From a virus (lineage: Duplodnaviria; Caudoviricetes), in IMG/VR virus record IMGVR_UViG_3300025715_000009, positions 64,001-128,000 of that record: a stretch of 64,000 nt of DNA. The stretch is one strand, 5' to 3'. The notes under the pieces are model-generated. The model was given only the letters and a program-made list of their open reading frames with translations. It had not been told where the DNA came from and made no database searches. Shown here piece after piece: positions 24,432-26,596 of the stretch. Within the stretch, counting starts at the first letter, position 1. The number at the start of each line of letters is the position of its first letter. Made by a program: the position numbers and the translations under genes.

Positions 24432-25046
24432 TTAGTACAAAATGTTCCAACTTTTTCTATGTATTGAACATAAACCATATTGATGTATAGCTTGTCTATG
24501 CTCTAATGTGCCATATCCTTTATGTTTAGCAAAACCATAATTTGGATATTTATCTTCCATTAAAATCATATATCTATCTCTTGCTACTTTAGCCATAATA
24601 GATGCTGCTGCTATTTCTTTATAAACATCCTCTCCTCTTACACAAGTTTCAAAATTAGAATTGTTTGGGAATGGATTCCAATTACCATCAAATATAATTT
24701 TATCAGCTTTTAGTCTCATTATAATTTTAAAAATAGCTTGTTTTTCTACATTTAATATACCATGTTTATCAATTTCATGTGATGAGATTAATTGTATATC
24801 AAAGTCAGCATACTTTGGTATCTCTTTAAATAACGCCTCTCTTTTTTTAGATGAGAGTTTTTTACTATCTTTTATGTCATTTAATAATGAGAGTGGAATA
24901 TCATCGTGTAGTATAACACCGCCTACACCTAATGGACCTGCTAAACTTCCCCTACTTTTTTAAATTCTCTCTTTTTAGCCCGAAGGCTAACCAACCTCGT
25001 CAAGCCCTAAAATCTTGAGATGGTGAACAAGAAAATCTTTTTCCAT
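24432..25046 (-). CDS. rnhB: Ribonuclease HII interrupted by a 36-nt coding gap (24954-24989); 192 aa if the gap is skipped
   Basis: GGAGG SD and ATG 25046: MEKDFLVHHLKILGLDEVG [gap] RGSLAGPLGVGGVILHD..IKDSKKLS..KRE..IIFDGN..IAAASIMAKVARD..YGFAKHKGYGT..IHRKSW; one frame throughout. Confidence 0.92.
24954..24992 (-). other. Candidate translational bypass element (take-off GGU, UAG, UUCG hairpin, landing AGU)
   Basis: GGT TAG CCT TCG GGC TAA AAA GAG AGA ATT TAA AAA AGT; stem TTAGCC/GGCTAA with cUUCGg loop. Confidence 0.75.
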
Positions 25047-25887
25047 AAATTTCCTCCAACTTTAAATAGTAATCTTCTATGTCCAACAAAAAAATAAATT
25101 CTTTTTGAATATTTTTGGCATAATTCTTTGCTGCTTTTTCTTTAGCTAAAATTTCTCCACTTTCTAATGCTTGTTTATACCAAAAATGAGAACTTTTTAT
25201 TTCAAAAAGATATTTATCTGTTTCAAAATCAACGAAATAATATCGTTCTTTATCATCAAGAATATATTTTATTCTTGGACCTTGCTTTACATTTAAATAT
25301 GCTTGTTCACATGATTTTATAAATTTTAATTCTTCAAATGATTTGTAAATTATTTTTTCATTAAAAATAGTAATATATTCTCCTGTTTTAAATGATGATG
25401 TTGATTTATATTGAACATGATCTTTATATATAGCTTTTTCAGATTGAAAATAATGTGAACCATATTTTTTTATCATTGTCTGTTTTATTTTATCTTGAGC
25501 TATTTTTGATCCTCCGCCGTTTTTAACACCATATTTTTTTAAACAAGTATCAACTATTTTATTTTTTACTGAATCTAATTGTGTAGTATTTTCAACACCA
25601 TATTTTATCATATTATTTTTTTTAATAATATTTTGAGTTTCTTTTAATTGACTTATGTTTTTAACACCATATTTTTGTATAGTTGATTCTATACGACTAC
25701 AATTAATACACAATTCATCAAATTTTGTTTTATAAAGTGTTTTTAATCTTGAATCAAATGTTTTTTTACATTTTTTACAAATACATTGAACCATTGTATT
25801 GCTGTTAATTTTTATACTATTAATATAATAACTGTGATTTAATTTTATTAAATCTTTTTTATTAAACATAATATTTCCTATATTCAA
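25000..25887 (-). mobile_element. Putative free-standing homing endonuclease (Zn ribbon, KYGV repeats, C-terminal PD-(D/E)xK/TnsA-like domain)
   Basis: CKKC..CINC; KYGV repeats; YFVDF..LFEIKS..K.AA; overlaps the rnhB 5' end by 47 bp. Confidence 0.7.
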
Positions 25888-26596
25888 ATATCGTCCCTCC
25901 TCATTAATACCTTATCTTTCTTAATTTATTATAAAATATACAAATCTTTATTTTTTTAACAAGATAAATATATGACACACCAAGATAAAATTAAAGAAGT
26001 TTTTACAAATTACGGCTATTTAATAATTGATGCTGTAGAGCCTGATGACCCAGATTTATTAAGTGATTTAAAAGATCTTAATATAAAATTAATTACATTG
26101 CCACACCCTCGTTTTATTGAAATAAAACTTGTTGGGTGTTATTCAGACATAAAACAAATTTTATCTATCCATTGGTTTCCACATGAAGGTGCTGAATTAG
26201 AAGAAACGATGGAAACTTTTATTAAATATTGAGAGGTAATATGACACCAGAAGAATTTTCAGTGAAATTAATTTTTGACTTACAAGGTGAAGAGCCATGG
26301 GTGGATAATATTCCAGATAAATTATTTTTTTTAAGCAAAAAAATACCTGGATCTAATTATTTTTGTCGTTTATTAAGAGAGTATAAAAAATTAGGAGAAT
26401 TTAATAAATCAGCAGCAGAATATGGTTTTAAAGAAGAGAAAAAAGGAAACCAATTATATCTAATTACAGATGATGGATCGATTATTCATTTTTTTGCCAT
26501 GGATAAAAGATATGAACCAGTAGTAAATAAGTTAAATTATATATTTAATCTTGATATGTTAGATCCAACATATGCGGAATTCTTTGAGGAGGAAGG

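Follow-up and report, generated by a model that had tools for sequence, protein, structure and literature searches.

How can a phage make ribonuclease HII (RNase HII) from an rnhB gene whose reading frame is cut, inside the active-site motif, by 36 nucleotides (nt) that carry three in-frame stop codons? The locus lies in a 64,000-nt stretch of viral DNA (Duplodnaviria; Caudoviricetes), hereafter the window, which corresponds to bases 64001-128000 of the 388-kb, 98%-complete IMG/VR virus record IMGVR_UViG_3300025715_000009; all positions given for the locus refer to the minus strand of the window. The explanation that we hold to be the probable one, on the strength of sequence comparison, is that a mobile cassette of the kind formed by mobA and gene 60 in phage T4 has settled in a new host gene, and that RNase HII is made from the interrupted gene by ribosomal bypass. 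A first-pass annotation of this DNA had arrived at bypass from the letters alone, an interpretation that is now supported by an allele devoid of the insert, a linked nuclease gene, gaps of other lengths at the same codon and an invariant sequence at the head of the gap.

A Shine-Dalgarno sequence, GGAGG (25053-25057), stands 6 nt ahead of the ATG at 25046 that opens segment 1 of rnhB, a run of 19 codons (24990-25046; MEKDFLVHHLKILGLDEVG) ending in DEVG. The first nine of these codons (25046-25020, MEKDFLVHH) form a cassette-derived extension, and the remaining ten (25019-24990, LKILGLDEVG) are homologous to the first ten codons of an uninterrupted, or empty, allele of the gene and carry the catalytic D-E pair. 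The last codon, GGT (Gly19; 24990-24992), is the proposed take-off codon and is directly followed by TAG, as in T4 gene 60. The coding gap itself (24954-24989) holds TAG (24989-24987) and two TAA triplets (24977-24975 and 24962-24960) in frame, after which the same frame resumes at AGG and continues as segment 2 for 173 codons (24432-24953), from RGSLAGP to the stop codon at 24434-24432. Segment 2 matched the Pfam family RNase_HII (PF01351, E 2.9e-26) over profile positions 8-197 of 199; upon joining of the segments, segment 1 supplies LGLDEVG, and the DEaGRGplaGP-type motif of RNase HII results. The first ATG, GTG or TTG in segment 2 is its codon 79, which opens a 95-codon open reading frame (ORF; 24432-24719), and this rnhB is the sole RNase HII gene of the genome. 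On re-reading, every statement of the first-pass annotation about the sequence held, from the GGAGG/ATG start and the 19 codons to the three-stop gap and the resumption of RNase HII in the same frame, and the ORF listing likewise agreed with its remark that the first 78 codons of segment 2 are free of start codons.

The head of the gap folds, together with the last base of the take-off codon, into a hairpin (24975-24990) with a 6-bp stem, UUAGCC/GGCUAA, and a UUCG tetraloop (-7.6 kcal/mol), with UAG inside it and the in-frame UAA at its end. The tail that follows is A/U-rich and contains a Shine-Dalgarno-like purine block, GAGAG (24967-24971), located 10 nt ahead of the landing position; the number of GGN triplets between the hairpin and that position is zero, a feature published for bypass gaps. 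At the landing position itself, directly ahead of the resumed AGG, stands AGT (24954-24956). The 14-mer of the take-off site occurs a single time in the 388-kb genome. Among the seven GC-rich tetraloop hairpins of the genome, six are followed by a T-run in the manner of terminators, and the hairpin of the rnhB gap has no T-run. The predicted stability of a 136-nt stretch of the region was not above that of shuffled sequences (z = 0.44), and we therefore make no claim for a 5′ stem-loop. The minimum-free-energy fold places both the GGAGG and the ATG that now start rnhB in a 10-bp hairpin whose other arm is drawn from codons 3-6 (25029-25056), a pairing that was not significant relative to shuffles; with the start so paired, initiation on rnhB may depend on ribosomes completing the nuclease ORF that overlaps it.

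Five further rnhB alleles bearing a gap were found through shortened gene calls among relatives and one metagenome scan; the scan was restricted to a D-E-x-G context and yielded one allele, and more may exist. All six alleles, including that of the window, are interrupted after the same glycine codon, GGT in each case, within DEVG-RG, the most conserved codons of the gene. The extra nucleotides number 24 in L104, 29 in L105, 35 in L108, 36 in the window, 45 in L200 and 50 in L198, and the triplet at the landing position is GGT in L104 and L108, GGC in L198, and AGT in L105, L200 and the window. A nuclease gene lies upstream in L104, L198 and the window and is missing from the other three. Three of the six gaps (29, 35 and 50 nt) are not multiples of three and shift the frame, so that neither read-through nor suppression can join the segments there. 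In all six, the downstream frame is open for 171-200 codons and the N-terminus is 8-14 residues longer than in empty alleles, placing 18-24 residues ahead of the take-off site in the other alleles for 19 in the window. The 18-nt head, GGT TAG CCTTCGGGC TAA, is invariant across the six alleles (18/18 positions), with mean identities of 70% and 66% in the 30 nt before and after the gap, respectively, and 2 of 20 third positions invariant. As judged from this alignment, the head of the rnhB gap is under sequence constraint. The tails, in contrast, differ in sequence; four alleles have a purine block (GAGAG or AGGA) 10-11 nt ahead of the landing position, whether the latter is GGY or AGT, the AGGA of L108, L198 and L200 being found at 11 nt. 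The nearest relative of L108 (89%) is uninterrupted.

A survey of 80 further viral rnhB genes found the motif contiguous in 70. In L118 (1480-1510), which is separate from the six gap alleles, rnhB has an N-terminal extension, is accompanied by what remains of the 3′ end of a DUF7487 gene, and reads GGG T AGA at the motif; the gap there is a single base, UAG occupies the A site, and crossing it would require a +1 shift or a 1-nt hop. L132 (1480-1510) and L133 read GGT CGA TGA CGT GGG at the motif; their 6-nt in-frame insert sets a stop between two arginine codons, CGA and CGT, readable by one tRNA.

The same head also interrupts other genes. Scanning of IMG/VR for GGN followed by the 14-mer returned 97 matches, most of which were intergenic hairpins with short upstream frames and no gene interruption; one was a topoisomerase cassette (L036). 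Across 185,579 cellular genomes the head motif had three matches, and in none of them is a gene evidently interrupted. On seven contigs (L012, with the head at 606-623, L090, L047, L091, L052, L067 and L017), the identical 18-nt head splits a phage metallophosphoesterase within its DxHxGH motif, so that MIYFTSDTHFG is followed by the head, a landing GGT (six alleles) or GGA (L017), and then CAY and the rest of the enzyme. Take-off is from GGT, with 11 residues ahead of it in some alleles, and the gaps, of 22 or 26 nt, shift the frame. In L012 the hairpin extends to 13 bp, with the landing codon at its base. The metallophosphoesterase alleles differ from one another at 14-50% of nucleotides, with synonymous divergence (dS) of 0.7 to above 2 and a non-synonymous to synonymous ratio (omega) of 0.10-0.18, and the 22-nt gap of five of them is identical (0/22 differences). 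These comparisons provide direct evidence of purifying selection on the metallophosphoesterase gap and on the protein encoded on both sides of it. The gene upstream is, in some alleles, a different nuclease with NUMOD3 motifs, and others have none. A single allele of a GT9 (heptosyltransferase-family) glycosyltransferase (L045, 10231-10260) reads GGT-head-CTA-GGC, with take-off GGT and landing GGC, and its joined product would read RSGAFG-DNIILTP. The 18-nt head is thereby invariant in six rnhB, seven metallophosphoesterase and one GT9 alleles, and the last triplet of the gap is GGT, GGC, GGA or AGT in all 14 cassettes. Limitation of this triplet to these four points to a codon-anticodon constraint rather than to free intron sequence.

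What brought the insert to rnhB is suggested by the gene directly upstream. The ORF at 25000-25869 (289 residues from its ATG; alternative start TTG at 25887) encodes a homing-type endonuclease (Pfam DUF7487, E 2.5e-11) with Zn-ribbon-like CxxC pairs at its N-terminus, KYGV repeats and, C-terminally, a PD-(D/E)XK nuclease domain, and matched PHROG families labeled 'homing endonuclease' at 5e-10 and 7e-9. Residues D214, E223 and K225, which form the D...E-x-K motif, are nearly invariant among 33 homologs. An AlphaFold2 model computed with an alignment reached a mean predicted local distance difference test score (pLDDT) of 89.5, and its top Foldseek matches were TnsA (1t0f and 1f1z; probability 0.99) and restriction-like endonuclease domains of R2 elements, the probabilities being 0.95-0.99 and the E-values weak (~0.03). 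Homologs of the protein are named very-short-patch-repair endonucleases or bear PF04480, PF18741 or PF08722, and the five nearest all lie directly upstream of an rnhB gene. A search for related loci with the nuclease protein yielded one distant locus, which is left out of the comparison. Over its last 47 nt, and in a different frame, the nuclease ORF covers the new rnhB start; in L104 the two genes share 23 nt. Close homologs of the nuclease (49-55% identity) stand upstream of rnhB, overlapping an N-terminal extension, in L109 (2501-3923), L110 and L111, all three of which have no gap; the rnhB motif of L110 and L111 is GVG and GIG, respectively, in place of GRG. Three other DUF7487 genes of the genome, located outside the window at genome positions 131459-132430, 167597-168450 and 221635-222700, are followed by ordinary genes with no visible gap.

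Both the insert and the nuclease gene prove polymorphic. The protein P0001 (MKILGLDEVGRGSLAGP...) is uninterrupted and 98% identical to segment 2, and three further uninterrupted relatives are 68-81% identical. In alignments, precisely the 36 nt are missing from the DNA of the uninterrupted relatives, the junction being ambiguous by a GT. Three relatives thereby bear out the claim of the first-pass annotation that removal of exactly these nucleotides restores the gene; the alignment to related rnhB genes for which it had called returned four alleles without the gap (L002, L003, L004 and L107). L002, the 98%-identical allele, is devoid of both the 36 nt and a block of ~935 nt (25017-25951; blastn of L002 against the genome) that consists of the nuclease gene, the new Shine-Dalgarno sequence and start codon and the 9-codon rnhB extension, and the break points are clean. 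Its homology to the window stops at the start codon of the uninterrupted relatives, whose ATG AAA is CTC AAG in the window. The 27 nt at 25016-24990 differ from L002 by two silent changes (7%), compared to 2.2% divergence downstream (97.8% identity), a weak indication, the stretch being short, that these nucleotides may be a cassette-borne homologous region that replaced host codons. Over the codons shared with L002 there are nine synonymous and four non-synonymous differences, and the resulting omega of 0.115, similar to the background among intact relatives, argues against a long-standing relaxation of selection on the rnhB of the window.

The gap is not peculiar to one assembly. Contigs from an activated-sludge DNA run of 2022 (X3) and from a metatranscriptomic library of 2018 (X6) span it without a difference, the RNA-library contig unspliced, in support of the reality of the 36 nt, which the first-pass annotation had asked to see confirmed in raw reads. 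The A of AGT is identical in both of these independent contigs and is thus not an assembly error. A contig from a 2025 run (X7), on the other hand, represents an empty allele: it is without the 36 nt and skips 25013-25952, with 20 other letters instead. A further run, X5, has no coverage of the gap. The RNA library X6 showed no joint without the 36 nt; contigs cannot exclude a rare spliced form.

The anatomy of the locus, its insertion polymorphism, the fold of the nuclease, the family of gaps and the constraint on their head are matters of observation, and they can be put together as follows. A free-standing PD-(D/E)XK homing-type endonuclease gene would have inserted just upstream of rnhB, as part of a cassette that also supplies a Shine-Dalgarno sequence, a start codon and the 9-codon extension, together with a duplicate of the opening rnhB codons and the 36-nt insert. 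The insert would destroy the target of the nuclease and so render the carrier immune, and bypass of the insert by ribosomes would keep RNase HII in production. While peptidyl-tRNA-Gly occupies GGU in the P site, the A site would hold a poorly decoded UAG enclosed in the UUCG-capped hairpin, and decoding would stall. The tRNA would then unpair and the ribosome slide across the A/U-rich tail, which offers it no glycine triplets, until the GAGAG block holds it by pairing with the tail of 16S rRNA; re-pairing of the tRNA at the triplet before AGG would allow decoding to resume and yield an RNase HII of 192 residues. What we infer in this scheme is that ribosomes hop at all, how efficiently they do so, that AGU serves as the landing triplet and that the insert confers immunity.

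The locus resides in a genome of 30% G+C whose major capsid gene is of the T4 type (PF07068, E 1.4e-71). ARAGORN predicted 59 tRNA genes, including one for Gly-GCC, two for Gly-UCC and one with the anticodon CUA (amber suppressor type). The CUA gene lies at genome positions 293264-293335, within a tRNA region of ~293-358 kb that is outside the window; the same set includes one call with a four-base anticodon (tgta) and one with a two-base anticodon. Under genetic code table 11, 85.5% of the genome falls within long open frames, a share that grows little when TAG or TGA is taken as a sense codon, and 31 of 265 long frames terminate in TAG; an altered genetic code was rejected on these grounds, the standard code fitting the genome. 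The closest cellular relatives of the RNase HII (45-50% identity) are those of Campylobacterota (Sulfurovaceae, Halarcobacter, Sulfurimonas and Sulfurospirillaceae), which may hint at the hosts that this group of sludge phages infects. A collection of cultured phages held no near relative of the rnhB locus or of the metallophosphoesterase cassette in a DNA search, and a protein search of it returned only rnhB at 40% identity or less.

Several observations weigh against bypass at the window allele, above all those that concern its landing triplet. On AGU, the GCC anticodon of tRNA-Gly keeps two of three pairs (the central G-C and the third-position wobble) and loses the first-position G-C. The next in-frame glycine candidates are a GGA, use of which would delete R-G, as the first-pass annotation had rightly remarked, and a GGU located 51 nt farther on, use of which would delete RGSLAG. 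In T4 mutants whose landing site is non-cognate, ribosomes move back or forward to other glycine codons that match, and resumption without pairing is low-level; by T4 rules, the window allele could yield DEVG-SLAGP or DEVG-PLGV, both missing the GRG element. Of the hop from GGU to AGU that the annotation had put forward, the landing position gains from the presence of GGY there in three alleles, whereas landing on AGU itself stays conjectural, with T4 data predicting some landing on later glycine codons. The hairpin stem, in addition, has 6 bp as compared to 10 bp in T4, the purine block lies 10 nt from the landing position and not 5-7 nt (6 nt in T4), and the nascent chain, 19 residues long, bears no likeness to the gene 60 peptide signal. 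The relatives L109-L111, which carry the nuclease without a gap, make the gap non-obligatory for the nuclease and the two separable; the low omega relative to L002 would say little in the case of a recent insertion; and the contig from the RNA library may stem from contaminating DNA. Part of this evidence would fit a cassette of bypass origin in a dead or crippled allele, in which translation terminates at UAG or lands on later glycine codons and the phage tolerates the loss of RNase HII. The mismatch between take-off GGU and landing AGU and the redirection of ribosomes to matched codons in T4 favor such an allele, as do a hairpin shorter than those of T4 and of the metallophosphoesterase cassettes and a closest relative devoid of the insert, so that decay may not yet have had time to show. 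AGU, however, recurs in the window, L105 and L200, three alleles with widely divergent tails, extensions and host genes (44-68% amino acid identity) and with open downstream frames, and a lethal defect is hard to reconcile with its presence in three diverged intact alleles. The purine block, moreover, keeps the same 10-11 nt distance to AGU as to GGY, re-pairing in the P site is not monitored and latitude in landing has been reported, and the gene with an omega of 0.115 relative to L002 is the only rnhB of the genome. Loss of function is, on balance, the most serious competitor of bypass, possible and yet clearly the less likely of the two.

The other ways of accounting for the locus fare worse. 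Removal of the gap from the RNA as a very small intron, re-ligated by RNA-processing enzymes of the phage or its host in the bulge-helix-bulge manner of tRNA splicing, would by its precision make the difference between AGU and GGY irrelevant, and a genome with 59 tRNA genes might seem a plausible place for it. The tRNA-splicing endonuclease family PF01974 nonetheless had no match in the genome in a search whose controls were positive, the capsid is of the T4 type and the closest cellular rnhB relatives are bacterial, structure prediction gives the closed UUCG hairpin alone, without a bulge-helix-bulge, the last triplet of the gap is constrained in 14 of 14 cassettes, and the RNA-library contig keeps the gap with no skipping joint in that run; we regard splicing as improbable. 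Translation through the gap, by stop suppression, an altered code or paired frameshifts, would produce an RNase HII with ~12 extra residues in its motif, and could draw on the tRNA with anticodon CUA to read UAG or on a +1 frame that is open across the gap, with an A-rich slippery run before AGU. This is very improbable given the two in-frame TAA that follow TAG, for which the predicted tRNA genes include no reader, the fit of table 11 to the genome, gaps of 29, 35 and 50 nt that cannot be read in frame, and the active site, which 12 residues inside DEVG-RG would probably wreck. Two successive +1 shifts were rejected, being arithmetically workable in L105 only. Least credible of all, to the point of being nearly negligible, is expression in two pieces, with a re-initiated C-terminal fragment assembling with the 19-residue peptide that bears D-E. 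Genes split by homing nucleases are known, such as T4 gp39/gp60 and split NrdA, and a purine block lies inside the gap; re-initiation nevertheless fails for want of a start codon in the 78 codons after the gap, the other alleles likewise having none near theirs, and a 19-residue peptide supplying two catalytic residues would seem implausible.

For almost 40 years, long-range ribosomal bypass has, to our knowledge, counted as a near-unique curiosity. The sole broad survey found it exclusively in topoisomerase genes of T4-like phages (Manning & Atkins). The alleles reported here suggest, at the level of sequence, that such jumping is used outside the one gene family in which it is known. A bolder proposal, for and against which we see the case as evenly balanced, is that the T4 gene 60 module (glycine codon, UAG, CC-UUCG-GG hairpin and in-frame UAA) would be a portable 'translational intron' that has reached at least three further enzyme genes by way of unrelated homing nucleases, working over gaps of 22-50 nt and chains of 11-24 residues without the gene 60 peptide signal and, with a purine block 10-11 nt upstream, even resuming at an AGU mismatched in its first position. 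If so, the take-off signal would be modular with respect to gap length, hairpin length, purine-block spacing, nascent chain (11-24 residues) and landing triplet (GGY or AGU), the natural variants would be ready for finding which of these features bypass needs, and homing nucleases would be able to colonize active-site codons without introns or inteins. For annotation, it matters that genes bearing such gaps are presently called truncated or broken.

Comparison with T4 rests on record AF158101, in which gene 60 reads GAT GGA TAG CCTTCGGGCTA TCT... with GAG 6 nt ahead of the landing GGA. The first-pass annotation had put forward both the take-off match and this GAG, correctly in both instances, and checking of the T4 sequence makes the 14-nt identity between the head of the window gap and the T4 take-off site an exact one. 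In T4 as in the window, a glycine take-off codon is followed by UAG, the same 14 nt (UAGCCUUCGGGCUA) form a UUCG-capped hairpin with a CC-UUCG-GG tip, and the tail is A/U-rich with a Shine-Dalgarno-like block. Both have a free-standing homing nuclease gene upstream whose ORF runs out of frame into the new N-terminal extension, host codons copied on the cassette and followed by an insert in the invariant glycine codon of an active-site motif, and near-identical empty alleles. They differ in the host gene, which is the large subunit of topoisomerase II in T4 and RNase HII, not split into two genes, in the window; in the nuclease, MobA being of the HNH type and the window enzyme a PD-(D/E)XK nuclease (DUF7487); in the gap, which is 50 nt in gene 60 and 36 nt and in frame here; and in the landing triplet, which matches the take-off codon in T4 and is AGU for a take-off GGU in the window.

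The MobA elements described by Manning & Atkins (10.1101/2022.08.31.505936) consist of a nuclease, an overlapping out-of-frame N-terminal extension, a cassette-borne homologous region and a gap; nuclease and host gene overlap by 8-32 nt, and the mini Shine-Dalgarno of published gaps lies 5-7 nt ahead of the landing codon, with the exception of MGS2, in which GAGG is found at 12 nt. The nascent-peptide signal of gene 60 resides in an extension of ~45 residues with conserved Y16, Q19 and V22, among others. In the same work the elements were found exclusively in the topoisomerase gene Topo2L, and the cassette was said to be one that 'remains unique'; in the literature, we likewise found gene 60-type cassettes reported from topoisomerase genes only. 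The metagenomic Topo2L cassettes of that study (clades 9-11) have GIY-YIG or VSR-family nucleases and gaps down to 20 nt, and so show the bypass module to travel with nucleases of different families. Like them, the rnhB alleles vary in gap length and hairpin, and the nuclease has been lost and the gap kept in L105, L108 and L200. Unlike them, with their take-off and landing codons always matched, three rnhB alleles have AGU, and the host genes are others (rnhB, metallophosphoesterase and GT9). A more distant parallel is offered by the 'byp' elements of Magnusiomyces capitatus mitochondria, which, as proposed for the window, are short mobile inserts in coding sequence that are bypassed in translation. 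The 'byp' elements treated by Lang et al. in 2014 reportedly are A/U-rich in their 3′ parts and tolerate, to some degree, an imperfect match of take-off and landing; they are also said to make no use of a Shine-Dalgarno sequence, to have no linked homing nuclease gene and to number dozens per genome. The dozens of 'byp' elements in a mitochondrial genome contrast with the one such head in this phage genome. To the systems so far described, the present analysis adds the T4-identical head in long gaps, the series of rnhB alleles, the metallophosphoesterase series with its signal of selection and the AGU landing variants.

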